Below are positions 5,535-56,071 of a stretch of 64,000 nucleotides of DNA, one piece after another. The notes beneath the pieces are model-generated. The model ran no database searches. It was not told the origin of the DNA and worked only from the letters and a program-made list of their open reading frames with translations. How positions within the stretch are numbered: position 1 is the first letter of the stretch; every line of letters starts with the position of its first letter. Source of the DNA: Candidatus Rifleibacteriota bacterium (lineage in GTDB: Bacteria > Muiribacteriota > Ozemobacteria > Ozemobacterales > Ozemobacteraceae); NCBI GenBank assembly GCA_024710355.1, contig JANJUX010000033.1, positions 181,981 through 245,980 on the forward strand. The letters run 5' to 3'. The position numbers were made by a program, and so were the translations under genes.

Positions 5535-7319
5535 CTAATCGTCGATGCTGATTATTTCACCGCCAAAAACCTCCAGAGCGTCGGCAACAGACGGTTTTTG
5601 CAGCATTTTCTGCCGTGCCTGCTCATCGATTTTTGCTATCTGCTCAACATGACTCAACCGTACAGGCGGGGTTTCTTCACCAGACGACCCCTGAGCCCCG
5701 GCCATGCCTATTCTCACGGTATCAATGTTGCCGTACACTGCTTTTGCAGCTTCGAGAAGAATTGCGTGATTCTTCTCTTCCTTAAGCTTGCCGGCTGCAA
5801 ATGTCTGCTCCAGCAGAATTTCAAGTATCCCGTTTTCTGGCTTTTTGAAACGGGCATTTACCAGCAAAGCCTGACAAACATTGGATCTGCTGCCAACTGC
5901 GTTGCGAAATTCCGCGAAGGGGTCGGTATTTTTCGACGTTACCGTAGTCATCGGCACCACATTGTCCGGCAGATGCGTCGGCCTTGGCGTAGAAGGCGAC
6001 TGCGACGACACCAGCGTCGGGCGCGCAGATGGAGCTGAAGTCGGCTGGGTAACCGGGGCCATTGCAGGTGCCGGCCGGCCGCCACGTGCCATACCAGTGG
6101 CACCAGGTTGACCTGCCAGCCTTTTAACTGCGGCCAGCTTTTGTTCAAGCTGCTCAACCCTTTTTTCAAGCGCTTCAGAAGCAAAGATCTCGTCGCCGAG
6201 ACCGAGACGAATCAACTCTGATTCGAGCAGCACTCTGGCCTGAAGTGAGCTTCTGATTGTCATCAGAGCCCTTTCGACCCGGGTAACGGCGCCGATCAGA
6301 TAACGTGCCGACAGCTGGCCGATCTGGTTTCTGAGTTCGGCGGCCTGTTCGGCCGGAAGATCGAGAACCTGGTTCGCCTCAGGGTCGATGCGCAGTATCA
6401 TGCAGCGCCGCAGATATTCGAGCAGGTCGCGCCCGATGGTCTGTGGCTCGTAACCTCGGAAATACAGGTCGTTCAGCTGCTTGACCAGAGCGGCAAGGTC
6501 ATGCGCAAAAATGGCGCCGGCAATGGTTTTGAGCGTCGAATAGCTCAGACGCCGCGTCATTTCAAGAACCTGATCGAGGGTTATCAGCTCAGTCGAAGCC
6601 GAGGCCGAGATCTGATCAAGCAGACTGAGCGCATCGCGAAATCCGCCTTCGGCACATTCAGCGATCATCGAAAGCGCTTCGGGCTCAAAAGCCGGAAATC
6701 CGCCATCGGCGTTTTCGAGTTTGACGATCTCTTCAAGGCGGGCCTGAATGGTTCGCCGCGAGACCGAATGAAAATCGAAGCACTGGCAGCGTGAAATAAT
6801 AGTGGCCGGCACCTTCTGGGGGTCGGTGGTGGCCAGAACGAAAAGTACATTCGGAGGCGGCTCTTCAAGCGTTTTGAGAAAGGCGTTGAATGCCGAACCC
6901 GAGAGCATGTGCACTTCGTCGATGATATAAATTTTGTATTTACCCTCGGCCGGGCGGTATTTAACCTTTTCGCGCATCTGCCTGATGTCTTCAACGCTGT
7001 TGTTACTTGCCGCATCGATTTCGATGATATCCATGAAATTCATCTCTTCGATACGCCGGCAGTTATGGCAGACGCGGCAGCAGTCGGGCAGACCGCGGGC
7101 ATCTTTCTGCAGGTCAGTGCAGTTGAGAATCTTGGCAAGCAGGCGGGCGGCCGAGGTTTTACCGGTGCCGCGCGGCCCGGAAAACATATAGGCGTGGGAA
7201 ATACGATCAGAAGCGACCGCAGACTGAATGGTGCGTGAGATGTGTTCCTGGCCCGACAGTTCAGAAAAACGCTGGGGGCGATATTTGCGATACAGGTTCT
7301 GGCGGGCTGGTGCGGTCAT
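5535..7319 (-). CDS. dnaX: DNA polymerase III subunit gamma/tau
   Basis: YRKYRPQRFSELSGQEHI...GPRGTGKTSAARLLAKILNC Walker A/clamp-loader signature; zinc module CxxC..CxxC; located next to SRP RNA as in Bacillus scr-dnaX. Confidence 0.9.
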   Translation of the reverse strand: MTAPARQNLYRKYRPQRFSELSGQEHISRTIQSAVASDRISHAYMFSGPRGTGKTSAARLLAKILNCTDLQKDARGLPDCCRVCHNCRRIEEMNFMDIIEIDAASNNSVEDIRQMREKVKYRPAEGKYKIYIIDEVHMLSGSAFNAFLKTLEEPPPNVLFVLATTDPQKVPATIISRCQCFDFHSVSRRTIQARLEEIVKLENADGGFPAFEPEALSMIAECAEGGFRDALSLLDQISASASTELITLDQVLEMTRRLSYSTLKTIAGAIFAHDLAALVKQLNDLYFRGYEPQTIGRDLLEYLRRCMILRIDPEANQVLDLPAEQAAELRNQIGQLSARYLIGAVTRVERALMTIRSSLQARVLLESELIRLGLGDEIFASEALEKRVEQLEQKLAAVKRLAGQPGATGMARGGRPAPAMAPVTQPTSAPSARPTLVSSQSPSTPRPTHLPDNVVPMTTVTSKNTDPFAEFRNAVGSRSNVCQALLVNARFKKPENGILEILLEQTFAAGKLKEEKNHAILLEAAKAVYGNIDTVRIGMAGAQGSSGEETPPVRLSHVEQIAKIDEQARQKMLQKPSVADALEVFGGEIISIDD

Positions 7320-7380
7320 CTGGTTCTCCGTTCATGGGCAATCTTGCTCACCTGCAACAGGTTAACAGATTAACAGCTAA

Positions 7381-7410
7381 AAAAAAAGACCCATGTCTGG
7401 AATGGGAGAG
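7381..7410 (-). terminator. short hairpin + U8 run after SRP RNA 3' end
   Basis: Minus-strand CCCAT-N7-ATGGG then TC-TTTTTTTT (plus-strand A8 at 7381-7388); weak 5-bp stem. Confidence 0.4.
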
Positions 7411-7412
7411 AA

Positions 7413-7682
7413 GTCGTGCACCTGACTTCGAACATACGTCAATGGTACGTATCCTGAACTATAGGCTCCGGACAGGCGCTGCCACATCACCCGAAAGCGA
7501 TCGTTTACCGTTGCTACCTTCCGATCCTGGCGGAGTTCACGGACTTTCGCCGTGTGGAACCCGTCCTTCGATGCTTCTAGAACTGGCCGTTGCCACCAAC
7601 AATGCCCTCTGTCAGGAATTCGATCCGCCTGGCGGGGATTTGCGGTGGATAAGGGACCCCGAGCCCCCCATCTAGCACGACA
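7413..7682 (-). ncRNA. ffs: signal recognition particle RNA, large Bacillus-type with Alu domain
   Basis: Minus-strand 5' GUCGUGCUAGAUGGGGGGCUCGGGGUCCCU...CCGCAAAUCCCCGCCAGGCGGAUCGAAUUCC aligns with B. subtilis scRNA Alu domain; domain IV motif CCAGGAUCGGAAGGUAGCAAC; 3' end GGUGCACGAC pairs with 5' end; ~270 nt. Confidence 0.8.
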
Positions 7683-7683
7683 A

Positions 7684-7771
7684 CGGAAAGGGCGGGATTC
7701 GAACCCGCGGTGGAGTTGCCCCCACTCACGCTTTCCAGGCGTGTGCCTTAGACCAACTCAGCCACCTTTCC
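7684..7771 (-). tRNA. tRNA-Ser (anticodon GGA)
   Basis: Cloverleaf with long variable arm; acceptor GGAAAGG/CCTTTCC; anticodon loop CUGGAAA; no encoded CCA; 3' end abuts SRP RNA 5' end. Confidence 0.85.
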
Positions 7772-7806
7772 GATTGAGGGAAAATTAAAACCCTCAGAAA
7801 AGAGCA

Positions 7807-7882
7807 ACGCGCCCGAGAGGACTCGAACCTCTGGCCACCAGATCCGCAATCTGGTGCTCTATCCAAACTGAGCTACGGGCGC
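7807..7882 (-). tRNA. tRNA-Arg (anticodon GCG)
   Basis: GCGCCCGTAGCTCAGTTTGGATAGAGC...anticodon stem CCAGA/TCTGG with loop UUGCGGA...GGTTCGAGTCC T-arm; 76 nt. Confidence 0.8.
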
Positions 7883-7892
7883 AAATTCGCTT

Positions 7893-7981
7893 CGGAGAGA
7901 GGGGGATTTGAACCCCCGGTACCAGTTACCCAGTACGACAGTTTAGCAAACTGTTGGTTTAAGCCACTCACCCATCTCTCC
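7893..7981 (-). tRNA. tRNA-Ser (anticodon GCU)
   Basis: GGAGAGATGGGTGAGTGG...anticodon loop UUGCUAA, long variable arm, GGTTCAAATCC T-loop. Confidence 0.85.
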
Positions 7982-7992
7982 AGAGATGCAAT

Positions 7993-8075
7993 CGGAGGAA
8001 GTAGGATTCGAACCCACGGAGCTTTCACCCTGCGGTTTTCAAGACCGCCGCCTTAGACCACTCGGCCATTCCTCC
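7993..8075 (-). tRNA. tRNA-Ser (anticodon UGA)
   Basis: GGAGGAATGGCCGAGTGGTCTAAGGCG...anticodon loop CUUGAAA, variable arm, GGTTCGAATCC T-loop. Confidence 0.85.
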
Positions 8076-8080
8076 AGTGC

Positions 8081-8109
8081 CTTATAAAGATAGCACAGGT
8101 ACCGATCAA
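8081..8109 (-). promoter_or_regulatory. sigma70-like promoter for tRNA/SRP-RNA cluster (TTGATC-17-TATAAG)
   Basis: Minus-strand TTGATC (plus 8104-8109), 17-nt spacer, TATAAG (plus 8081-8086) ending 5 nt upstream of tRNA-Ser(UGA) 5' end. Confidence 0.45.
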
Positions 8110-8209
8110 AATCAACACTTTTTCGGCGGTTTTGTCTGACGAATCTCAACAATGTACAGCCAGTTTTTCGCAACGCCACTGCAATAAACCGCAAAAAATC
8201 CTGGTCCCG

Positions 8210-8252
8210 AAAATAAAAATTCCCGCTGTCCGTAGTTGCGGATAGCGGGAAT
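8210..8252 (-). terminator. rho-independent terminator after ftsB
   Basis: Minus-strand ATTCCCGCT-N16-AGCGGGAAT hairpin followed by TTTTTATTTT. Confidence 0.6.
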
Positions 8253-8266
8253 CTGGCTTTCCTGTC

Positions 8267-8662
8267 TCAGGGAGCTTCTGCTGCCGGTGTGGCCGGGTCT
8301 GGAGATGAAACCGGAGCCTGAGGCGCCGGGGCAGCCTGACTACCCTGTTCATTCTTTTCGTTGATCGTGTAAATCACGAGTTCTTCGGGTTTAACCAGTC
8401 CAAGGCGCTCACGCGCCAGCCTTTCGATGCCTTCGGGAGTAGAAAGCATTTCAAGATTCTGTTTCAGATGCCGGTTTTCGCGTTCGAGCGCTTCGATGCG
8501 TTCACGCAGCTCAGCCTCGCGCTGCAGCAGTGTGCGGATATTGTTGTAGCGGACAAGATAGGTTATCGACAGAGCAACACAGAATACCACCGACAGAATG
8601 AACATGATTTCTGTCGAAAACCGCACACGTTTACGTTTGACCGGCACTTTTTCTTCGTTCAT
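8267..8662 (-). CDS. ftsB: septum formation initiator FtsB/DivIC family
   Basis: 131 aa; single N-terminal TM (IMFILSVVFCVALSITYLV) followed by coiled coil (LLQREAELRERIEALERENRHLKQNLEML); Pro/Ala-rich tail. Confidence 0.65.
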   Translation of the reverse strand: MNEEKVPVKRKRVRFSTEIMFILSVVFCVALSITYLVRYNNIRTLLQREAELRERIEALERENRHLKQNLEMLSTPEGIERLARERLGLVKPEELVIYTINEKNEQGSQAAPAPQAPVSSPDPATPAAEAP

Positions 8663-8734
8663 GAACCGTTTACCCTTGCCAGAAATTTAAATGAAACGGC
8701 TGCCTCCCTGAACCAGAGAGGCAGCCCGGTTTTA

Positions 8735-11440
8735 TCAGTCGGCAGTCTCTTCTTTCGACGGAATTCTGACGACAGAGATCAGCCTGTCATCGCCATCGAG
8801 AGTTATCAGCTTGACCCCGGAAGCGGCGCGACCGGTGTTTCTGATCGAATCGGCGCTCAGACGCACGACTTTGCCGTTGGTGGTGACGACCATCAGCTCA
8901 TCACCCTCGAACATGCGTTTGATTGCGAGAACTTCGCCGGTCTTTTCCATGATCTTGAGGTTGATGACGCCTTTACCACCACGATGAGTAACGCGATAGC
9001 TGTTGACATCGGTCTTTTTGCCGAAACCAAGTGCCGAAACGGTCAGCAGCCGGCCTTCATAGCGACCATCATCTTCGACTGGCGGCGCGGTTTCGCCATC
9101 AGGGGCCTCGTCGATGATTTCGTCTTCGATAACTTCATCGACGACTTCATCAATTACCTCATCGATCGGCGCTTCTGCTTCGGCAGCCACGGTAATATCG
9201 CCATCAACAGACGGCACTACGGCAACATGCAGCTCGCCATCGTCATCTTTCTTGCGGCTGAAAACTTCCATGCCGATTACTTCATCGTTCTTGTCTCTGA
9301 AGGTGATGGCTTTAACCCCACGGGCTGTTCTGCCCATGACGCGCACTTCACTTTCAGGGAAACGTATGGCATAGCCGTTGCGGGTCGCAATAACCACCTG
9401 CTCGCCGCCGTTGATTGGTTTGACGCCAATCAGTTCATCGCCCTCGTCAAGCTTGAGTGCAATTATGCCGCGAGCCATCGGTCTGGCAAACGCCGACAGA
9501 ATGACCATCTTCGAGACACCCTTGCGGGTTACCATGAACAGACGGCGTGTATCGTCAAACTTCTTGATCGGCAGAATCGCAGTGAGGGTTTCGTTCTCTT
9601 CGAACTGCAGCAGATTGACCATGGCGCGGCCACTTGCCTGGCGACCGCCTTCGGGTATCTGGTAACCCTTGATCCAGTGCACTTTGCCGATCGAAGTGAA
9701 TACCAGCAGATATGAATGGGTCGTGGCCAGGAACATGTGTTCGACGACATCTTCGTCTTTGACGCCCATGACATTGCTGCCCTTGCTGCCACGGCTGATC
9801 TGCCTGAAAACGCTCGGTGACATGCGTTTGACATAGCCGTTCTTGGTCAGGGTGATGATGATATCTTCTTCCTGCATCAGATCTTCGACATTCAGTTTTT
9901 CGGCTGAAGATCTGGTAATCTTGCTGCGGCGGGCATCACCGAAGCGGGCTTTGATGTCGAGGAGTTCTTCTTTGATGATTTCTCTGACCTTCTCGTCTGA
10001 TTCGAGAATGCCTTTGAGCTTCTGGATCAGAGCCAAAGTATCGTGATATTCGGCGATGATCTTGTCGCGTTCGAGGCCTGTCAGTCTCTGCAGTCGCATT
10101 TCAAGAATCGCCTGTGACTGTTTATCAGAGAGCATGAAGGTATCCATGAGGCCCTGTTTGGCTTCATTCGGATCTTTAGCTGATTTGATCAGCTCGATGA
10201 CCGCGTCGAGATTGTCTAGAGCGATCGTCAAACCTTCGAGAATGTGGGCCTTTTCTTCGGCCTTGCGCAGCTGGAACACGGTTCTGCGGCGAATGACTTC
10301 GCGGCAGTGATTGACATAGTGTTCCATCATTTGCTTGAGATTGAGAACCAGCGGGCGGTTGTCGACGAGAACCAGGTTGATTACGCCGAAACTGCTCTGC
10401 ATCTGAGTGTGCTTGTACAGCTGGTTGAGAATGACATCGGTATTAACGCCCTTGCGCAGTTCGATACAGACGCGCATACCTTCGCGGCTCGACTCATCGC
10501 GCAGGTCGGTAATGCCATCGATCTTCTTTTCCTTGATCAGATCGGCGATTGATTTGACCAGGCGGGCTTTGTTGACCTGATAAGGCAGTTCGGTAACGAC
10601 GATGCGGTCGCGGCCCTTGTTGAATTCTTCAATTTCGACGACCGAACGAACGACGATGCTGCCGCGGCCGGTTTTGAAGGCTGATTCGATGCCATCGGTA
10701 CCCATGATGATACCGCCGGTCGGGAAATCCGGGCCGGGAATATGGTTCATCAGCTCATCAATGGTTACTTCAGGGTTGTTGATCAGCTGAATCAGGCCGT
10801 CAATGACCTCCGCAAGGTTATGAGACGGCATGTTGGTCGCCATACCAACCGCGATGCCTGATGAACCGTTGACCAGCAGATTCGGAAACTTGCTGGGCAG
10901 CACGATCGGCTCATTCAGAGAGCCATCGAAGTTCGGCATCCATTCAACCGTTTCCATCTCGATGTCTTTGAGCATTTCTTCTGCCAGGGCTTCGAGACGG
11001 GCTTCGGTATAACGCATTGCCGCTGCTTCATCGCCGTCAACTGAACCAAAGTTACCGTGACCGTTGATCAGCGGGTAACGCAAGCTGAAATCCTGGGCCA
11101 TGCGAACGAGGGTGTCATAAACAGCTGAGTCGCCGTGCGGGTGATACTTACCAAGAACTTCCCCGACGGTGCGGGCTGATTTGACGAAAGGTTTCTTGCT
11201 GGTGATGCCCTGATCGAACATTGCATATAGCACACGGCGGTGAACCGGCTTCAGGCCATCTCTGACGTCTGGCAGAGCGCGGCCGACGATTACGCTCATC
11301 GCGTAATCGATGTATGAAGCCTTCATATCGTCTTCGATATTGATATGTCTGATGCCTGTCGTTGGTGGCGGAGGAGGAGGAGGAGGAGTCTCGATACCGC
11401 CAGTTTCCTCGACAGGAATATTTTCGTTGATGTTATCCAT
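8735..11440 (-). CDS. gyrA: DNA gyrase subunit A
   Basis: [33 protein letters not shown]...catalytic Tyr region; CTD beta-pinwheel; unusual N-terminal tail with PPPPPPPP and acidic CTD insertion. Confidence 0.95.
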
Positions 11441-11456
11441 TATGAAAGCCCCTTAA

Positions 11457-13481
<2,025 letters not shown>

Positions 13482-13766
13482 TTAATATCGATACTGGGAA
13501 CTCATCTTCCATTCAGCCTTCAGGTATTCTGCCTGCTGAAAGGGGTGACAGATTCCGCGTTGTGCAAGTGCTTCGGGGGAAAGGGTCGAACCGATCCAGC
13601 GACCATCAACGGTTTTGATGGCTGCCCGGTATTCGCCCGCATCTTCAAGCTTCGGCAGAGTCTCGACCACACGCCGGCGCGTGGCTTCATCGACAGTCTG
13701 CAGATTTATGATCAATTCACAGGTCTTGAAATCAACGAACTCATTTTGACCGATATGAATCAGCAT
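13482..13766 (-). CDS. DUF370 (RemA/RemB-like) protein
   Basis: MLIHIGQNEFV...AAIKTVDGRWIGSTLSPEALAQR matches RemA pattern (I.IG.....LIDATYGRRTR.VII.....LS...PETVAQR); same position upstream of gyrB as B. subtilis remB (yaaB). Confidence 0.6.
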   Translation of the reverse strand: MLIHIGQNEFVDFKTCELIINLQTVDEATRRRVVETLPKLEDAGEYRAAIKTVDGRWIGSTLSPEALAQRGICHPFQQAEYLKAEWKMSSQYRY

Positions 13767-14728
13767 TCTGGTTCTCCGGGTTTGATTGCCAGGTAAGCAT
13801 GCCAGCGTTCATCAGGCACCTCCTGGGTATTCAGATGTTCAAAATCCACTTCATCAGGCATGCAGCCGCTGAAAAGCATCATGCTGCGCACCATCTCTTT
13901 GCGCATGCGGGCTGCAGTCTCTTCGTCGTAATTCAACGAAAGATCGGCCGCCAGTTCCTGGATTAGGTTCAGGCTTTCATCGAGCAGTTCGGCACGAATT
14001 GCTTCGAACTCAACGATGGTAAGGCCGCTTTCGAATTCGCAAACTTCTTCAAGCGTCAGCCAGGGCATTTCTGAAATCAGCACCCTGGCCTTTAAAAGGT
14101 TGTCTTCGCGGGTTTTATAAACACACATCGCACAGACACCGTTTTTCGAGCGGGTTACTGCGGCACGGCACAACACACACAGTTTATAGCCGCGTTCTTC
14201 GAGACCCTTTAGTCTGGCGTTCAGCTTCTGCTGACAACGACGCATCTGTTCTGACAATTCCTGATCCTTTAACTCTGCCATTGGCACTTCATCTTCGCTC
14301 TGCCAGTCGGGCCAGGTGGCTTCTTTAACCATCTTTTCGACTTCCGGCGGTATTACCCCCGGCTTGCCGACCACTTCGCCGATTTTCATCTCGGGGAAAA
14401 GCTCATTAAGCTTCTCGATAATTCTGGCTTTGAGAAACACCAGTGTCTGCATCCACTGGCTGTCGGCTACCGCAAGATAGAGGCGGCCCTTGATCAGACG
14501 GGTCGGGCAGGTTTTGGCGGCCAGCTGCAAACCGACAACGTCTTTCCAGGCGTTGATGAGTTTGCCAAGCGTAACCAGCTCTTTTGCCGTCAGCACAAAG
14601 CGCTGGCGGTTCTCAGACGCACGAAAGGTGGCTTCGCGCATGCCTGACAAGGCTTTGACCAGAGAGAAGCTCGCGGGTTTCGTGCCGCCGACTCTCCGGT
14701 TCGCTGCAGTCTGCTTGAAGGTTTCCAT
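13760..14728 (-). CDS. dciA: DciA-like DUF721 protein with C-terminal zinc-ribbon extension
   Basis: N-terminal ~110 aa resemble DUF721 (as Mtb Rv0004 between recF and gyrB); C-terminal CVLCRAAVTRSKNGVCAMC CxxC-N13-CxxC; overlaps DUF370 by 7 nt. Confidence 0.55.
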   Translation of the reverse strand: METFKQTAANRRVGGTKPASFSLVKALSGMREATFRASENRQRFVLTAKELVTLGKLINAWKDVVGLQLAAKTCPTRLIKGRLYLAVADSQWMQTLVFLKARIIEKLNELFPEMKIGEVVGKPGVIPPEVEKMVKEATWPDWQSEDEVPMAELKDQELSEQMRRCQQKLNARLKGLEERGYKLCVLCRAAVTRSKNGVCAMCVYKTREDNLLKARVLISEMPWLTLEEVCEFESGLTIVEFEAIRAELLDESLNLIQELAADLSLNYDEETAARMRKEMVRSMMLFSGCMPDEVDFEHLNTQEVPDERWHAYLAIKPGEPEC

Positions 14729-14881
14729 TGGCCCTCTGGCTGTTGTCAGTCAATTCCCTCTCAGGGAAGAAGAGAGGGTGTAATATACTACTCTAAAATG
14801 ACTTTTTTTTCAAGTAGTAACAACAGTCGGAAATTAGCTTAAAAACGCCTCTCGTAGCGTTTTTAAACGGGCCGGCAATAC

Positions 14882-16294
14882 TTATTGCTTATCGGGGTCG
14901 ACAAAGCGTCTGACGCGCTCGAATTCTTCGGCAAATGCCTTTTCCTGTTTGAGCTTGCGGTTAACTTTATCGCAGGCGTGCATGACGGTCGTGTGGTCAC
15001 GGCCACCGAATTTGTCACCGATCTGATTGAGTGAGGCATCGGTAAAAATCTGACACAGGCGCATGGCAACCTGCCTCGGAAGCACGAGATTCTGCGAACG
15101 CCTTTTCCCGGTCAGTTCGCTTTCAGAAATATCGTAAAATTCGGCGACGCGTTTTTGAATCCAGGGAATACTGATCTTGCCACCGGCATTTTCACGCAGA
15201 ACGTCTTTGAGCACCTGGTCGACCATATCCTTGCTGACCGGTTTTCGCATGATGCCGGCAAAGGCGAGAACGCTGTTGAAGGCGCCCTCCAGATCGCGAA
15301 TATGCGATACGACGTTCTGAGCCATATACATGATGATCTCGTCTGATACTTCTACCATTGACTGGCTGGCGAATTTTTTAAAAATAGCGGCGCGCATTTC
15401 GAGGTCTGGTGGCTGAATATCTACTACCACACCCATACCAAATCTTGAGGCCAGGCGTTCTTCGAGTGATTCGCCACCGCGCTGAATCTTGCTTGGAGCT
15501 GAGTCAGAAGTGAGAACGATCTGTTTTTTCTGCTGAAAAAGTTCATTAAACGTGTGAAAGAATTCTTCCTGGGTCTGTTCTTTGCCGGCAAAAAACTGCA
15601 CGTCATCGATCAGAAGCAGGTCAATTTTGCGATATTTCGAACGAAACGCTTCGGCTTTTTTATCTTTCAGCGAATCGATGAATTCGTTGGTGAAAACTTC
15701 TGAAGAAAGATAGGCAATCTTGGCTTTTGGGTTGTTTTTAAGCAGTTCCTGGCCGATTGCCTGAATCAGATGGGTCTTTCCAAGGCCAACGCCGCTGTAA
15801 ATGAATACCGGGTTATGAAGGCTGCCGGGGTTTTTAGCTACTGCCTGGCAGACTGCGTAGGCAAACTGATTGCTCTTGCCGACGACAAACGAATCAAATG
15901 AATACTTGCTGTTAAACATGCCGTCATATCTGGCCGGAACTGTTTTAGCAGATTTTAGTGGTTCATCATCGGTTCTGATTGCCGGAATTGTCGGCTGCTG
16001 AGGTTTGCCTGCAGCCGGCCGGCCGGTTTTAGTCACCAGACGATATTTGAGAGCCGGCTTTTCGCCGCTGAGAATGCGGGTAATTACATCGGCATAACGC
16101 TTTTCTGCGAGGTCGCGGCAGAAATCGTTTGCGGCTTCCATGACCAGATGGTCGCCTTCAATAGCTGCCGGCGTGATGGAACTGAGGAAAATCTTTGAAC
16201 TTGCCTTGTTTTTACTGCTTCCATCAGCCTGGATTTCTGTGGTGATTTTATTCCAGAGCGTATCGAGCGACGATATCATGTACAATGACCTCAC
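14882..16294 (-). CDS. dnaA: chromosomal replication initiator DnaA
   Basis: AAA+ Walker A IYSGVGLGKTHLIQAIG, DnaA domain IV DHTTVMHACDKV; DnaA boxes upstream. Confidence 0.95.
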   Translation of the reverse strand: MRSLYMISSLDTLWNKITTEIQADGSSKNKASSKIFLSSITPAAIEGDHLVMEAANDFCRDLAEKRYADVITRILSGEKPALKYRLVTKTGRPAAGKPQQPTIPAIRTDDEPLKSAKTVPARYDGMFNSKYSFDSFVVGKSNQFAYAVCQAVAKNPGSLHNPVFIYSGVGLGKTHLIQAIGQELLKNNPKAKIAYLSSEVFTNEFIDSLKDKKAEAFRSKYRKIDLLLIDDVQFFAGKEQTQEEFFHTFNELFQQKKQIVLTSDSAPSKIQRGGESLEERLASRFGMGVVVDIQPPDLEMRAAIFKKFASQSMVEVSDEIIMYMAQNVVSHIRDLEGAFNSVLAFAGIMRKPVSKDMVDQVLKDVLRENAGGKISIPWIQKRVAEFYDISESELTGKRRSQNLVLPRQVAMRLCQIFTDASLNQIGDKFGGRDHTTVMHACDKVNRKLKQEKAFAEEFERVRRFVDPDKQ

Positions 16295-50780: not shown

Positions 50781-50961
50781 AAGGGCAGCACAATAAGAGC
50801 GATTCGTCGTCTTTGTAGAGAAACCTGATCGTAGCCCATGTTCTTATATCATTAATATTAAACTCGATTTTTCAGCAAGAAACTTTAAAAAATAGAAAAT
50901 TTAAAATTAAAATTTTGCTTTCAATCTTTTCTGCTTTTTCTGGCATATTACTTTCTGCAAT

Positions 50962-51498
50962 ATGATAAAAATCAGCCAACAACTCGTGGAAAATTTTGCG
51001 GCCGGCGACATGAAGGCCGCCGCGCTGCTGTTCGAGCAGCTGCGTCGCCCGTTGTTTGCCTATTTTTATCGGCTCGGTGGCGACCGCTGTGTGGCCGAAG
51101 ACCTGTTGCAGGAAACCCTGCTGACGCTGCACAGCCGCATCGAGACCTTCAACCGCGACTGTGAATTCATGCCCTGGGCCTGGGCGATCGCCCGCAACAA
51201 GTTTTTTGAATTCAAACGCAGCCAGAGTCGTGTGACCCGCCTGCTGCCGCAGCTTGCCGGCGTGGTGAAGCCGGAGCAGAACTGTTTCAGCAACGATGTG
51301 CATTTCGCCACCGACCTGAGAAACTGCCTCAATGAACTGTCTGAGCCGACCCGAGAGGCTTTCGTGTTAAGGCATTTCCAGGGCCTGAGCTTTCAGGAAA
51401 TCGCCGATCTGCAGCAGGTGCCCCTGCCGACCGCCAAATCGCGCGTGCTTTTTGCCCTGAAAAAGTTACGCGAATACTTTAAAAGAGGTGAACGATGA
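50962..51498 (+). CDS. ECF (extracytoplasmic function) sigma-70 family factor
   Basis: Region 2 (ETLLTLHSRIETFN...FMPWAWAIARNKFFEFKR) and region 4 HTH (LSFQEIADLQQVPLPTAKSRVLFALKKLR). Confidence 0.85.
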   Translation: MIKISQQLVENFAAGDMKAAALLFEQLRRPLFAYFYRLGGDRCVAEDLLQETLLTLHSRIETFNRDCEFMPWAWAIARNKFFEFKRSQSRVTRLLPQLAGVVKPEQNCFSNDVHFATDLRNCLNELSEPTREAFVLRHFQGLSFQEIADLQQVPLPTAKSRVLFALKKLREYFKRGER

Positions 51499-51947
51499 AC
51501 AGCCGATGCCTTGATGAAGAGCAGCTGATCAGCCTTTACTATGACGAAGACGAGGCTGCCGCATGCAGAGAGCACATAAGAGAATGCCCGGCCTGTCAGC
51601 AGGCTTTCGCCGAAGTATGCAGCGAGCTTGCCGAAATCGACCTGCCGGTGCCCGATGGCGGCCACCGCGCCGTCGCCGAAGCACTCAAGCTCATCGGTCG
51701 GCAGCAACCGGCAGCGGATCGTGACGAAATCATGACCCTCGAAGAGGTCGCCGACTGGCTCAAGGTGGGTTCGCACGCCCTTGCCGGCATGCTGCACCAG
51801 CTGCCGCATTTCATCGTTGCCGGCCAGATAAGGTTCAACCGCCGGCTGCTCGAAAATCATCTGTTCAATCGCCGGTCTGAGGCTGAGAATAAGGCGCCAG
51901 ATCAGCCCCGGCAGCGTTTAAAAGTCGTTGGCGGCCGCGCCGCCTGA
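51495..51947 (+). CDS. zf-HC2 (ZAS-type) anti-sigma domain fused to excisionase-type HTH; no TM segment
   Basis: HIRECPACQ = H-x3-C-x2-C; C-terminal MTLEEVADWLKVGSHALAGMLHQLPHFIVAGQIRFNRRLLENHL resembles HTH_17/Xis; 4-nt overlap with sigma gene. Confidence 0.6.
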   Translation: MNSRCLDEEQLISLYYDEDEAAACREHIRECPACQQAFAEVCSELAEIDLPVPDGGHRAVAEALKLIGRQQPAADRDEIMTLEEVADWLKVGSHALAGMLHQLPHFIVAGQIRFNRRLLENHLFNRRSEAENKAPDQPRQRLKVVGGRAA

Positions 51948-51960
51948 AGGGAGACTGCCC

Positions 51961-53493
51961 ATGTCAGTAGTTTCAACCCGCAATCTCGAACTGTTCAGCC
52001 GCAAGTTCGGCAAAATGCTCGGTTCAGGTATTCCGCTGCTGAAGGCACTTGAACTGCTGCAACGCGAAGAGGGCGATTCGCCGCTGGGCGCCATTATCGG
52101 CCAGATCTGCAGCCGGGTTCGTGAAGGTTATACCTTTTCCAGCTGTATGAGCCTTTTTCCCGGCGTTTTCACCGAAGTATTCGTCGCCATGGTCAAGGCC
52201 GCCGAGAACCAGGGCCGACTCGATCAGGGCATGGTCGAAATCGCCGACAGCCTCGCTGACGGCACCCTCGAAGCCGGCCAGGGCGGCGGTGAAATCAACG
52301 AAGCTGCCGGTGCGGCCGAAGATGCCAATCTGCAGGTTATCAAGCTGGTTAACCGTGTTATTTCAGACGCGGTAAAAGAAAAGCTCGCCCGCGTCGTCTT
52401 TAAACCCGAACGTGACCACGTCAAGCTCAATGCTGCCAGGCAGAACAGCCTCGAAGCCCGCGAAAACTTCGATCACCCGACCTATGACCGTATCGTTGCA
52501 CGCATCAAGCTTATGTCGGCACTCGATATCAGCGAAACCCGCCTGCCGCAGGACGGTCGCATGCTGATCAAGGTCGAGAACGAGCTCGTCGATATCCGCG
52601 TGCAGCTGGTTCCGACGGTGTTTGGCGAGCAGATTCTGCTGTTTTTCAGCCGCCCCGATGAAGTTGCACCGCCTGTCTCGGCAGTTTTCCCCGATGAGGC
52701 GCAGCGAAAGCAGATCGTCGGACTGCTGCAGAACCTTAACCGTGGCCTGGTCATCTTTGCCGGCCCGCACGGTTCAGGCAAGACCACCAGCCGCGATACG
52801 GCCATGTCGATACTTAACGACGGCACCAGAGTCATTTTCGAAGTCGGGCGTATTTACAAGGCGATCGATGGCATCGGCTGCATTCAGGTCAAACCGCATA
52901 TCGGCATGACGATGCCGGCCGCCATCAGGGCTGCCGTGCGCGCCGAGGCACATGTGATCGTAGTCGAAGAGATCAGCGACGAAGAAACGGCCCTCGAATG
53001 TTTCAAAGCTGCCAACGACGGCATTCTCGTGCTGACCCAGATGCATGCCCGCAATTCTTCTGAAGTGTTCAGACAGCTTCTGAATCTGAAGGTGCCGCCA
53101 TTTCAGCTTTATGACGGCATTGGTACCGTGGTTTTCCAGATGCTGGTGCGCAATGTCTGCCCTGACTGCCGGCGCGAACTTGAATTCACGGCAAAAGATT
53201 TTGCCAGACTCAGTCTGGTCGATTTCAAACCCGGCCGTTACAGCGACAGCAAGGGCTGCGCCAGTTGCCGCAACTCTGGCTATCGTGGTATGCACCCGTT
53301 TTACGAAATCACCGTGCCGAACAAAAACCTCAAAGAGGCGATCATCAAAGGCGACAGCAATCAGATAACCCTTGCTCTCGAAGCCATGCATGGTACCTGT
53401 CTCGAAGCGAAAATCCGCACCTGGGTCGAAGAAGGCCACACCAGCCCGGCCGAAGCTGCCCGCATTCGCACGATTCTGTTCGCCCAATCCTGA
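51961..53493 (+). CDS. GspE/PilB-family secretion ATPase with N-terminal GspF-type (T2SSF) cytoplasmic domain fusion
   Basis: T2SSF-like LELFSRKFGKMLGSGIPLLKALELL...VFTEVFVAMVKAAENQGRLDQ; GspE N2/CTD RIKLMSALDISETRLPQDGRMLIKV...DIRVQLVPTVFGEQILL; Walker A GPHGSGKTT; tetra-Cys CPDC...CASC; AAGGGAG RBS. Confidence 0.7.
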   Translation: MSVVSTRNLELFSRKFGKMLGSGIPLLKALELLQREEGDSPLGAIIGQICSRVREGYTFSSCMSLFPGVFTEVFVAMVKAAENQGRLDQGMVEIADSLADGTLEAGQGGGEINEAAGAAEDANLQVIKLVNRVISDAVKEKLARVVFKPERDHVKLNAARQNSLEARENFDHPTYDRIVARIKLMSALDISETRLPQDGRMLIKVENELVDIRVQLVPTVFGEQILLFFSRPDEVAPPVSAVFPDEAQRKQIVGLLQNLNRGLVIFAGPHGSGKTTSRDTAMSILNDGTRVIFEVGRIYKAIDGIGCIQVKPHIGMTMPAAIRAAVRAEAHVIVVEEISDEETALECFKAANDGILVLTQMHARNSSEVFRQLLNLKVPPFQLYDGIGTVVFQMLVRNVCPDCRRELEFTAKDFARLSLVDFKPGRYSDSKGCASCRNSGYRGMHPFYEITVPNKNLKEAIIKGDSNQITLALEAMHGTCLEAKIRTWVEEGHTSPAEAARIRTILFAQS

Positions 53494-53515
53494 TTTTCTA
53501 AGAGCTCAATCAGAC

Positions 53516-53550
53516 GGTTATCAAAGCGCAGGCTGCGATAACCGTTTTTG
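53516..53550 (+). terminator. possible terminator GGTTATC-N14-GATAACC-GTTTTTG
   Basis: 7-bp inverted repeat followed by T5; lies between convergent genes. Confidence 0.4.
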
Positions 53551-53635
53551 TTACCTGTTTGTTTATCAGCGCAGATCGAATTTTTGGGCGTTAGACAGGG
53601 CGTCGAACCGATAAACGATCCTGGTTTTACAGCTT

Positions 53636-56071
53636 TTACCAGGTCTTTGGGCCGCGGCTCTGCAGAACACGCCTGATTTCGCGCAGCAGTTCCGCCGATG
53701 ACAGAGGTTTGTAGGCAAAGCCGGCGATGCCTTCCTGGGCTGCTTTTGTACGGTCAATCTGGTCTGAGTGCCCGGTGACAATGATTACCGGGGTTTCTGG
53801 CTTCAGCTGCAGAATCTTTCTGGCCATGGCGGCCCCGGTCATTTCTGGCATGGTCATGTCGGAAATGACCAGATCGAAAGCCTCAGGAGCTTGTTTAAAA
53901 GCTTCAAGGGCATTGACAGAACTTGAGAAGGTGGTGACCTGATAGCCAAAGCCCTTCAGAATTTCTGAGTTTACTTCAAGGATCATCGATTCATCATCAA
54001 CGAGCAGGATTCTCCCGCTGCCTGACAAAGGTTCCTGTGCTGGTTCCGGCAGGTTCTGGGGTATTATGTCGCTTTCTACCGCCGGAAAAAAGATTTCAAA
54101 AGTCGTTCCTTTTCCGACTTCTGAAAGAACTCTGATTTCGCCGCCGTGTTCTTTGACTATGCCATGCACAACGGCAAGGCCCATACCCGAACCCTTGAAT
54201 TTTTCCTTGGTGGTGAAAAATGGCTCGAAGATTCTCGGCAGATTTTCCGGGGTGATACCATGCCCTGTATCTGAAACCGCCAGTTTAAGATACTGTCTGG
54301 TTTTGTCGCAGGCAGCACTGCTTAATCCTTCGGGCAGAAGCGACTCTGAAACCTCTATTTTGAGACTGCCGGGTTCACCCGCCAACGCATGCATTGAATT
54401 AGTGCATAGATTCATCAGAATCTGGTTGACCTGATTGCTGTCGGCGAGTATTTTGCCCTGCGAAAGCCACACTTCTTCGATTTTCATGGTCGATGGCAGG
54501 GTTGGGCGCAGCATTTTGATCGCATCTCTGGCTTCATCTGCCAGACAGACGACTTTCTTTTCCGATACATTTTTGCGACTGAAGGCAAGAATCTGTCTGA
54601 CGAGATTTTTGGCTCTTTCTGCCGCCATTTCAATGTTTTCAAGATTCTTGAGCATTGCAGTCTGGTTGTTCAGTCGATTTCTTGCCATGCCAAGGTTCCC
54701 GATAATCACGAAAAGAATATTGTTGAAATCGTGGGCGATGCCGCCGGCCAACCTGCCGACCGCTTCCATTTTCTGGGTCTGCAGAAGCTCACTTTCAAGC
54801 TTTTTTTGCTCAGTAATGTCGTTGCCGATGCACAACATCTCTTTGAAACTGCCATTTTCATCGTAAATTGCCCGATTGGACCAGCGCACATAAACTCTTG
54901 CCCCATCGCCACAGAGATTTTCATTTTCGACGACGATATGGTTTGCCGGGTCTGAAAATACCGGTTCAATAATGGTTTTAATTTCCGTTCCGTCAGTCTG
55001 GGCATGTGGCAGAATTGTCTCGTAAATTGATTTGCCAATTAATTGTTCGGAACTGAATTTAAGCAGTTTTTGCCCGAACTGGTTGATAAAACATATTCGC
55101 TTTTCTGAATCGAGCCGCAGGATTACCGAGTTGGCCAGTTCGACAAGATTACGAAAATCCTTTTCCTGGGCGGCCAGTTCTTTGGTTTTCTGCTGCACCA
55201 GATGCTTCATCAGGCGCATGCCATAAAGGGTGAACCCGGTAATGATTATGAGAAGCGAAAGAACTACGCTGACCCATTTCGGAATGAAGCTTTTTCCCGG
55301 TTTTGCCGCCCCAAGCCAGAAATCCAGCTTTTCATGATAAAAAGAGCCCTCCACCGACTTCCATTTTTTGAGTTTCTTGTCGAGGCGCTCCAGCAGGTCA
55401 GCGTTGTAACCCTTCTTTGTCGCAAAAAAAACGTTGAATGGCGAAAATTGAATCGATGTCGATACCAGACCATGTTCATGGCAGAATCTCAGGCCGAAGT
55501 GCTGCGGTGCAACGCCTGCAACGGCTTTTCCCTGGGCCACCGCATCGAAAACTTCATGATGAGTCGCCAGCTCGATGATATTGCTTTTTCCGCCAAAACC
55601 GGCCAGCGTATCGATAAAATTCTGGCCGTTGATATCTTTTTTCATTATCGCCACATTTTTGCCGCGGAGGTCGAGAATGTTGTTGATGCCGCTGTCAGGG
55701 CGGGTAAAAACCTGACCCCAGATCAGCACTACCGGTTCATGGCTGAAATCCATGATTTCCTGGCGTTCCGGGGAAATGGCGACCGTGGTCATCAGGTCGA
55801 TCTCGCGATTCTGCAGCCTCTCGTAGCACTCATTCCAGCTTCCAGGCACAAAAACCGGGTGGCGGTCCGAAGTTTTGAACGCTTCTTTGATAAGATCTGT
55901 GTTAAAACCAGTCGCTTCATCGCTGCTGTCGTAAAAATTCAGCGGCTCGAGAGGAAAAACACCAACTCTGAAAATCTGTGCGTCTTCGCCGGCAACAACT
56001 GCACAGTTGATCAGGCCAAAAAATACCAGAATAAAAAGCAGGTATTTTCTCATTCTCTCCCTCAATTTCAA
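53636..56071 (-). CDS. hybrid sensor histidine kinase/response regulator with periplasmic solute-binding (SBP_bac_3-like) sensor and PAS domain
   Basis: Signal/TM, periplasmic SBP3-like domain, TM, PAS, HisKA (GIAHDFNN), HATPase_c (DTGHGI...GSGMGLAVV), C-terminal REC (LLVDDE...DLVISDMTMP). Confidence 0.85.
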   Translation of the reverse strand: MKLRERMRKYLLFILVFFGLINCAVVAGEDAQIFRVGVFPLEPLNFYDSSDEATGFNTDLIKEAFKTSDRHPVFVPGSWNECYERLQNREIDLMTTVAISPERQEIMDFSHEPVVLIWGQVFTRPDSGINNILDLRGKNVAIMKKDINGQNFIDTLAGFGGKSNIIELATHHEVFDAVAQGKAVAGVAPQHFGLRFCHEHGLVSTSIQFSPFNVFFATKKGYNADLLERLDKKLKKWKSVEGSFYHEKLDFWLGAAKPGKSFIPKWVSVVLSLLIIITGFTLYGMRLMKHLVQQKTKELAAQEKDFRNLVELANSVILRLDSEKRICFINQFGQKLLKFSSEQLIGKSIYETILPHAQTDGTEIKTIIEPVFSDPANHIVVENENLCGDGARVYVRWSNRAIYDENGSFKEMLCIGNDITEQKKLESELLQTQKMEAVGRLAGGIAHDFNNILFVIIGNLGMARNRLNNQTAMLKNLENIEMAAERAKNLVRQILAFSRKNVSEKKVVCLADEARDAIKMLRPTLPSTMKIEEVWLSQGKILADSNQVNQILMNLCTNSMHALAGEPGSLKIEVSESLLPEGLSSAACDKTRQYLKLAVSDTGHGITPENLPRIFEPFFTTKEKFKGSGMGLAVVHGIVKEHGGEIRVLSEVGKGTTFEIFFPAVESDIIPQNLPEPAQEPLSGSGRILLVDDESMILEVNSEILKGFGYQVTTFSSSVNALEAFKQAPEAFDLVISDMTMPEMTGAAMARKILQLKPETPVIIVTGHSDQIDRTKAAQEGIAGFAYKPLSSAELLREIRRVLQSRGPKTW

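Follow-up and report, generated by a model that had tools for sequence, protein, structure and literature searches.

What does an ATPase of the PilB/GspE family do when its N1 domain has been replaced by a domain of the GspF/PilC membrane platform, and when it is encoded behind a sigma factor and an anti-sigma-like protein? This question is raised by a 64,000-nucleotide stretch of DNA from Candidatus Rifleibacteriota bacterium (assembly GCA_024710355.1, contig JANJUX010000033.1, positions 181,981 to 245,980 of the forward strand), referred to here as the window. The gene concerned, a T2SSF-T2SSE fusion, is the third and last gene of a compact operon in which a promoter motif is followed by genes for an extracytoplasmic function (ECF) sigma factor, an anti-sigma-like protein and the fusion. 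A previous sequence-only reading had described the gene as a secretion ATPase carrying a GspF-type domain, and had missed the operon context, with its ECF sigma factor, zinc-binding anti-sigma (ZAS) protein and absence of secretion or pilus genes nearby. Because the gene lies in a sigma/inhibitor operon and most of the catalytic residues have been lost, a regulatory role in the cytoplasm is more likely for the fusion than one as a secretion motor. Taken as a whole, the proposal that it binds nucleotide and serves the sigma/anti-sigma pair as a regulatory partner is given an even chance. The parts of the fusion gene are as follows.

51961..53493 (+): T2SSF-T2SSE fusion gene, 510 amino acids plus stop (open reading frame, Pfam, NCBIfam, PDB search, AlphaFold2 model, Foldseek)
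51994..52260 (+): T2SSF six-helix domain of the GspF/PilC Cyto1 type, residues 12-100 (Pfam, PDB search, AlphaFold2 model)
52258..52332 (+): linker, residues 100-124, with the motif ADGT(I/L)EAGxG (alignment, ratio of nonsynonymous to synonymous substitution rates (dN/dS), AlphaFold2 model)
52333..53460 (+): PilB/GspE-type core of N2 and C-terminal domain (CTD), residues 125-500 (Pfam T2SSE, Foldseek)
52762..52788 (+): Walker A GPHGSGKTT, intact (sequence, alignment)
52837..52857 (+): degenerate Asp box FEV-GRIY, canonically T(V/I)EDPVEY (alignment)
52957..52980 (+): atypical Walker B IVVEEISD, canonically xMVGEIRD (alignment)
53020..53052 (+): degenerate His box GILVLTQMHAR, first His lost (alignment)
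53158..53268 (+): tetracysteine zinc motif CPDC...CASC, invariant (sequence, alignment)

The reading frame extends from 51928 to 53493 on the forward strand, and its likely start is the ATG at 51961, which is preceded at 8 nucleotides by an AGGGAG Shine-Dalgarno sequence, lies 14 nucleotides past the stop of the upstream gene and coincides with the N-termini of all fusion orthologues. A TTG at 51928 was rejected as an alternative start, since the Shine-Dalgarno sequence and the orthologue N-termini favour the ATG, in agreement with the gene coordinates proposed previously. At residues 12-100, the T2SSF family (PF00482) was matched by Pfam with an E-value of 4.6e-16 and 59.4 bits, against a gathering cutoff of 25.2, and profile positions 1-90 of 125 were covered, corresponding to the soluble part only. 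According to NCBIfam, residues 4-97 align to positions 60-153 of GspF and 66-155 of PilC, that is, to cytoplasmic domain 1 (Cyto1). In a sequence search of the PDB, the EpsF and PilC Cyto1 crystal chains 2vma, 3c1q and 2whn were matched at E ~1e-10, and the remainder of the protein matched PilB, EpsE and PilF. The T2SSE family (PF00437) was found by Pfam at residues 125-500 with an E-value of 2.1e-63. An AlphaFold2 model built from an alignment of 34 family sequences, with a predicted local distance difference test score (pLDDT) of 88, comprised six helices at residues 6-99, a linker at 100-113 and then N2 and the CTD, and its top Foldseek matches were PilF, PilB and EpsE (E ~1e-32 to 1e-34; target-normalised template modelling score <=0.82).

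Neither T2SSE_N (PF05157) nor an N1E-type domain (PF22341) was matched in the fusion protein by Pfam at E<=1, and no transmembrane segment was detected, the maximum Kyte-Doolittle 19-residue mean being 1.5. The layout of GspF and PilC, with two T2SSF repeats and three transmembrane helices, is absent, given that the fusion has one repeat and no hydrophobic segment. The N-terminal part is a domain homologue of GspF/PilC and not a member of the platform family. The whole protein scored 231 bits against the NCBIfam GspE and PilB equivalog cutoffs of 630 and 676. The single soluble T2SSF-type domain in place of N1 that the sequence-only reading had described was thus borne out, as were its GspE-type N2 and CTD core, its Walker A motif and its zinc site. 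That reading had also called a covalent F domain on each ATPase subunit mechanistically odd. The fusion itself stood, and the oddness was softened: in an AlphaFold2-multimer PulE6:PulF3 model, each of the six Cyto domains contacts one N2 domain (PMC10790770), so that one F domain per ATPase subunit would be stoichiometrically natural.

Alignment with canonical GspE and PilB sequences showed that Walker A, the PQDGR arginine-finger motif (nt 52546-52560), QxLxR, the Asp of GEIRD and the four cysteines C400, C403, C433 and C436 (CPDC at nt 53158-53169, CASC at nt 53257-53268) are invariant, Walker A (GxxGxGK[ST]) being conserved in 34/34 aligned family sequences. It is known from PilB and PilT mutants that the Asp box, Walker B and His box motifs are each required for ATPase activity and function. 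In the window protein, the canonical EDPVE Asp box aligns to EV-GRIY at residues 294-299, and Walker B retains Glu337, with the Gly and Arg of GEIRD replaced. The divergence of the Asp and His boxes claimed previously was upheld, although the stretch EEISDEETA, which had been taken as the Asp box, is in fact Walker B, equivalent to the canonical GEIRD. The Asp box, canonical Walker B and His box are all lost in 33/33 sequences of the Rifleibacteriota clade, in which the position of the Walker B Glu reads E, D, S, G, N or Y and the His box is replaced by a conserved TQMxARN, the first His being lost throughout and the second retained only in a window-like subgroup. The window protein is among the least degenerate of this clade, with both Glu337 and the second His present. 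Additionally, a substitution patch confined to the Walker B region (VGAVAIVMVVDYISDEE versus VRAEAHVIVVEEISDEE) was observed in a cluster representative 98% identical to the window protein (P0001), from which it removes the otherwise invariant R327 as well as Glu337; it could have arisen from a compensated frameshift or from relaxed constraint.

Across the fusion family, the Walker A Lys, the Walker B Glu and both His are all present in 43/69 clusters, and at least one of these four residues is lost in 26/69 (38%), the Lys in five of them. In a control set of 144 PilB/GspE representatives taken from the same searches and lacking a contiguous F-domain match, deviations were found in two (2/144), both resembling unusual multi-domain proteins. 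Selection on the fusion gene was estimated by the Nei-Gojobori method against five relatives, with an overall dN/dS of 0.06-0.10 and values of 0.07-0.17 for the F domain, 0.04-0.12 for the linker, 0.01-0.09 for N2 and 0.08-0.10 for the CTD; such low values throughout the gene exclude a decaying gene or an assembly artefact. Repeated loss of motifs while purifying selection persists marks a protein that has ceased to depend on hydrolysis for its function, and this family-wide loss strongly reinforced the previous suggestion of an altered or regulatory ATPase activity. In the linker, G101, G106 and G108 are invariant or nearly so, and the linker motif, at the dN/dS given above, is strongly conserved despite a low model confidence (pLDDT ~66). 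This segment may be a docking peptide instead of a passive spacer.

The proposed search for homologues with the same fusion revealed a large existing family and not a one-off. A first homologue search returned ~36 clusters that share this two-domain architecture, at identities ranging from 98% down to 31%, the named members of which were Candidatus Riflebacteria/Rifleibacteriota. The architecture is found in more than 30 Rifleibacteriota clusters (39-98% identity) on many independent contigs. An N-terminal alignment scan of species-representative genomes yielded 15 loci, the named ones being Rifleibacteriota and the nearest (98%) belonging to Candidatus Rifleibacterium sp. When the distant 611-aa member P0035 was used as query, roughly a hundred further clusters were recovered, and the named ones were Planctomycetota. 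In these relatives, two tandem soluble T2SSF domains were identified by Pfam ahead of the ATPase (2xF), forms with one such domain (1xF) existing there as well, and, of the two F domains in the 2xF forms, the counterpart of the one in the window protein is that next to the ATPase. In an exhaustive profile search of 1.84 billion representatives, the best 150 hits included at least 70 clusters (50% identity) in which the F and E domains were matched contiguously. The fusion is therefore a large uncharacterised family comprising 1xF, 2xF and Clp_N+2xF forms. Two further arrangements were observed: P0179 (L009:7001-9289) carries Clp_N repeats before two T2SSF domains in the same cassette, and P0125/P0126 have two T2SSF domains ahead of a pair of complete T2SSE ATPase modules, reaching ~1050 amino acids.

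The genes and signals that surround the fusion in its operon are the following.

50921..50947 (+): promoter-like motif TCAATC-N16-GCATA, extending to GGCATATTA (conserved position)
50962..51498 (+): ECF sigma factor, 178 amino acids, with sigma-70 regions 2 and 4 only (Pfam Sigma70_r2, Sigma70_r4_2)
51495..51947 (+): soluble anti-sigma-like protein, 150 amino acids (ZAS motif, Pfam, AlphaFold2 model, Foldseek)
51573-51596 (+): HxxxCxxC ZAS motif in the anti-sigma-like protein (alignment)
51732-51857 (+): excisionase/HTH_17-like winged helix in the C-terminal part of that protein (Pfam below cutoff, AlphaFold2, Foldseek)
53512..53551 (+): hairpin with U-run, candidate intrinsic terminator ending the operon (fold -19 kcal/mol, z -2.5)

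In NCBIfam, the sigma factor passed only the generic ECF model TIGR02937 (83 bits vs 42.9) and no named subfamily. Its stop codon is overlapped by the start of the anti-sigma-like gene (ATGA), in the product of which H27, C31 and C34 are invariant among orthologues, together with a Cys or His near position 5. The zf-HC2 family exceeded the Pfam cutoff in the distant orthologues of L004 and L005, and the window copy lies below it. HTH_17 was matched in the C-terminal half of 6/6 orthologues tested, always below the Pfam cutoff. The AlphaFold2 model of this protein consists of a four-helix N-domain (helices 8-69), a winged helix-turn-helix (wHTH) at 79-124 with beta-alpha-alpha-beta-beta-alpha topology (pLDDT 82-87) and a disordered tail. 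In Foldseek, the winged helix matched the excisionase-type domains of BldC, Xis and RdfS with probability 0.97-0.99 but weak E-values, and it also resembles the TraN DNA-binding fold. No transmembrane segment was found in this protein. Hence, the product of the middle gene is read as a soluble ZAS-type anti-sigma factor with an excisionase-like C-terminal domain, which would bind and inhibit the sigma factor. In NCBIfam, a weak MADS1-HTH similarity of the wHTH was found and nothing more on the defence side; an anti-phage defence system was rejected, given that none of the three proteins had a PADLOC match. It was also observed that a KAPDQ motif in the disordered tail is conserved among Rifleibacteriota orthologues; it may be a short linear interaction motif.

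Upstream of the sigma gene, the TCAATC motif occurs at the same position in every Rifleibacteriota locus, with the consensus TCAATC(C)-N16-GGCATAWTA ending ~15-20 nucleotides before the sigma ATG; Planctomycetota loci carry TGAAAC-N16/17-CTGTT in its place. A search with TCAATC-N16-GCATA for members of the regulon gave one match in the 64-kb window, the operon's own promoter, against 0.19 expected, and an extra match inside a TrkH open reading frame of L019 was judged to be due to chance. The motif is presumed to be an autoregulated ECF promoter that the cognate sigma factor would recognise. Just 5' of the -35-like TCAATC, a conserved A-rich tract (AAAAAATA(A/G)AAA...) was noted at 50860-50920, with equivalents in the Rifleibacteriota loci among L001-L025; it could serve as an UP element or as a binding site for the winged helix. 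At the other end of the operon, the hairpin was detected by folding, and a consensus terminator scan did not call it.

With regard to the conservation of this arrangement, it was found by tblastn that the sigma gene, the middle gene and the fusion occur together in 24/25 loci, in Rifleibacteriota and Planctomycetota. In the gene-called context of nine homologues (34-63% identity), which take in 2xF, Clp_N and 1xF Planctomycetota forms, the order is invariably sigma, a protein of ~150 amino acids and the fusion, with unrelated flanks. No pilus or secretion genes were found among the scanned open reading frames of the window, nor in the flanks of 24/25 loci. In addition, tblastn searches with canonical PilB, GspE and F-domain queries picked up the fusion gene and no further T2SSE- or T2SSF-like gene, both in the window and at every locus. 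The exception to the triad is L015, in which the promoter motif and an intact 511-aa fusion are present and the sigma and anti-sigma genes have been deleted internally. A remnant open reading frame, 'MKKNQSKTGK*', was observed at L015:3868-4001, and the sister genome L014 has the full cassette; the deletion in L015 is either genuine or due to a collapse in the assembly.

How such a protein could act may be outlined as follows. The anti-sigma has no obvious sensor beyond its ZAS motif, which leaves the pathway with a missing input partner unless the fusion provides it. The fusion would form a PilB-like ring in which nucleotide is bound and hydrolysed poorly or not at all, with its F domains sitting on the N2 domains as the PulF Cyto domains do in PulE6:PulF3, an arrangement that would block docking to a real platform. 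The protein would then be a cytoplasmic third partner in the ECF pathway, for signal input or feedback, and might bind the anti-sigma through the wHTH or the tail in a manner dependent on nucleotide or conformation. Such binding would control the release of the sigma factor, which would transcribe its own operon from TCAATC-N16-GCATA. In the Planctomycetota relatives with intact motifs, some of them with Clp_N, the same step may be ATP-driven, and the intact forms with Clp_N suggest that the ancestor used ATP to act on a protein substrate. A broader proposal, which we consider possible but somewhat short of probable, is that a domesticated pilus or secretion motor constitutes an unrecognised mode of ECF control, in which a PilB-like ring with Cyto domains would work as a nucleotide-gated anti-anti-sigma factor or as an anti-sigma remodeller, ATP-driven in Planctomycetota and a pseudo-ATPase switch in Rifleibacteriota.

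Several observations weigh against a regulatory role of this kind. The presence of Glu337 and the second His in the window protein leaves room for some hydrolysis, and the full catalytic set in most Planctomycetota members implies that the ancestral function used ATP. The fusion-only locus L015 is awkward for a purely sigma-regulatory role, if its deletion is real. At the distant GC-rich locus L005 (4524-8043), a secretin gene (PF00263) and a 585-aa open reading frame follow directly after the fusion, this being the only case of a secretion or pilus component beside the triad. Finally, we infer the contacts among the sigma, anti-sigma and fusion proteins, and the shared operon does not in itself tell whether the fusion regulates the sigma factor or is an output of it.

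The latter point bears directly on the idea that the fusion is an output effector, that is, that the sigma factor induces a dead PilB look-alike with a PilC decoy, which would poison or brake a type IV pilus or type II secretion apparatus whose genes lie elsewhere, either through mixed hexamers with PilB or by taking up sites on PilC, PilM or GspL. This idea is favoured by the position of the fusion as last gene of a sigma-controlled operon and by dead-enzyme signatures beside preserved oligomerisation and nucleotide-binding residues; the T2SSF Cyto1 domain is, moreover, the part of the platform that contacts the ATPase (PMC10790770), and both the secretin at L005 and the retention of the fusion without sigma and anti-sigma at L015 would fit. 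However, linkage to pilus or secretion genes is missing from 24/25 loci and from the window, many family members have full catalytic motifs, which would not be expected of a poison subunit, and an anti-sigma with no obvious sensor other than ZAS would be left without its input component. We therefore regard the output effector as unlikely, albeit the main rival. The fusion could also be a genuine motor, the working ATPase of a divergent machine, either type IV filament-like or for secretion, that has its other genes elsewhere; the ECF pair would then simply regulate expression of the fusion. The complete PilB/GspE core fold, the Walker A, arginine-finger and zinc motifs, the Glu337 and single His-box His of the window protein and the complete motifs of Planctomycetota relatives all speak for a motor. 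This is nevertheless very improbable, considering that the Asp box and the first His are gone in 33/33 clade members, that the catalytic Glu has become D, S, G, N or Y in most of them, that the N1 domain by which GspE and PilB are anchored to GspL or PilM is missing, that no machine genes lie nearby and that the bit score stays far under both equivalog cutoffs.

A further alternative is that the winged-helix protein recruits a hexameric ATPase to DNA or transcription complexes, with ZAS merely tethering the sigma factor. The similarity of the C-terminal domain to the BldC, Xis, RdfS and TraN folds, the matching of HTH_17 in all orthologues and the conserved A-tract upstream of the -35 element are in line with such a DNA-directed device, but its probability is slight, since the HTH_17 scores are all below cutoff and the Foldseek E-values weak; besides, PilB/GspE-type ATPases are not known to translocate DNA, and repeats of the kind that excisionases bind were not seen, although no search was aimed at them. 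As to an artefact, be it a gspF-gspE junction created by misassembly or a frameshift, a pseudogene in decay or helices that resemble T2SSF by chance, practically no credence is given to it: nothing was found in its favour, and the same architecture in at least 70 clusters (50% identity) on many contigs, the low dN/dS, a T2SSF match above the Pfam cutoff, PDB matches at 1e-10 and the lack of transmembrane remnants all contradict it. Misassembly and pseudogene readings were rejected on account of the conserved homologues and the purifying selection. The preferred explanation remains that of a nucleotide-binding partner of the sigma/anti-sigma pair.

The other scanned open reading frames of the window are of the housekeeping type and include dnaA, dciA, gyrBA, dnaX, pdxST, upp and a resistance-nodulation-division (RND) pump, among others. 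Convergent with the operon, a hybrid histidine kinase is encoded at 53636-56071 (-), with periplasmic SBP_bac_3, PAS, HisKA, HATPase_c and receiver domains; a different histidine kinase lies convergently downstream in L001, and the kinase neighbour is not conserved at other loci. On the reverse strand, at 5535-16294 (-), the genes dnaX (5535-7319), gyrA (8735-11440), gyrB (11457-13469), one for a DciA-domain protein (13760-14728) and dnaA (14882-16294) were found, and the cumulative GC skew has its minimum near 8-10 kb of the window. This gyrase/dnaX/dnaA cluster and the skew minimum indicate that the window probably spans the region of the chromosomal replication origin. Additionally, a 1313-aa protein encoded at 32802-36743 (+) combines Vps62-like, DUF7910, fascin-like and FRG1-like domains, which are mostly known from eukaryotes, a combination unusual in a bacterium.

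How PilB/GspE hexamers engage the GspF/PilC platform is a long-standing open question, for which dimer-in-pore and trimer models have been put forward. A widespread natural fusion with one Cyto domain per N2-CTD subunit represents independent evolutionary support for a 1:1 Cyto:N2 interface. If the fusion is indeed a domesticated motor, it would, as a by-product, provide Rosetta-stone evidence for the 1:1 Cyto:N2 contact of GspE6:GspF3, and it offers a soluble, membrane-free construct with which this interface could be solved. Furthermore, the family represents the repeated conversion of a motor ATPase to a pseudo-enzyme under purifying selection, a clean case of motors repurposed as switches. 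Literature searches turned up no account of a fusion between T2SSF and T2SSE, nor of an ECF module that includes a T2SSE-family protein, although catalogues of ECF groups may list the group uncharacterised. The proteins themselves are public under generic names, the exact window protein appearing as 'ATPase, T2SS/T4P/T4SS family [Candidatus Rifleibacterium sp.]'; the fusion is read here as a pseudo-ATPase of the PilB/GspE family that makes an unusual third member of an ECF/ZAS system.

When compared with the known motors of the PilB/GspE family (G. metallireducens PilB, 5TSH; V. cholerae EpsE, 1P9R/4KSR; T. thermophilus PilF, 5OIU), the fusion shows ~25-30% identity over ~385 aligned columns and has in common with them the N2 and CTD fold, Walker A, PQDGR, QxLxR and the tetracysteine zinc site. 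In contrast to them, it bears T2SSF in the place of N1, which in those motors is a GspL- or cyclic di-GMP-binding domain, it lacks the Asp box, the first His of the His box and the canonical GEIRD, and it is not encoded beside pilins, a platform, PilM/GspL or a secretin. With respect to the platform proteins GspF, PilC and PulF, residues 4-100 are homologous to Cyto1 (EpsF, 3C1Q/2VMA; PilC, 2WHN; E ~1e-10 to 1e-16) and keep its FPxxxxxMxxxxExxGxL-type signature, whereas the fusion differs from these proteins in having one repeat instead of two, no transmembrane helices or channel and a covalent tether to the ATPase.

On the side of transcription control, the two upstream genes resemble the soluble ZAS/ECF pairs RsrA-SigR, RshA-SigH and ChrR-RpoE, with which they share a co-transcribed soluble HxxxCxxC anti-sigma and a probably autoregulated promoter; uncharacterised groups with soluble ZAS proteins, ECF270/271, have also been mentioned (PMC8999054). 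Unlike those pairs, the anti-sigma of the window bears an excisionase-like wHTH, and not a cupin or no domain, and a PilB-like protein is the obligate third gene. A precedent for signalling by a protein of this family is found in Myxococcus xanthus, where PilB signals in the regulation of exopolysaccharide, a hydrolysis-deficient PilB still signals and the signalling conformation is set by the nucleotide state (PMC5544727). However, the M. xanthus PilB is a working motor that moonlights and carries MshEN/cyclic di-GMP domains, whereas the window protein is a dedicated degenerate paralogue that accompanies a sigma factor and its anti-sigma.

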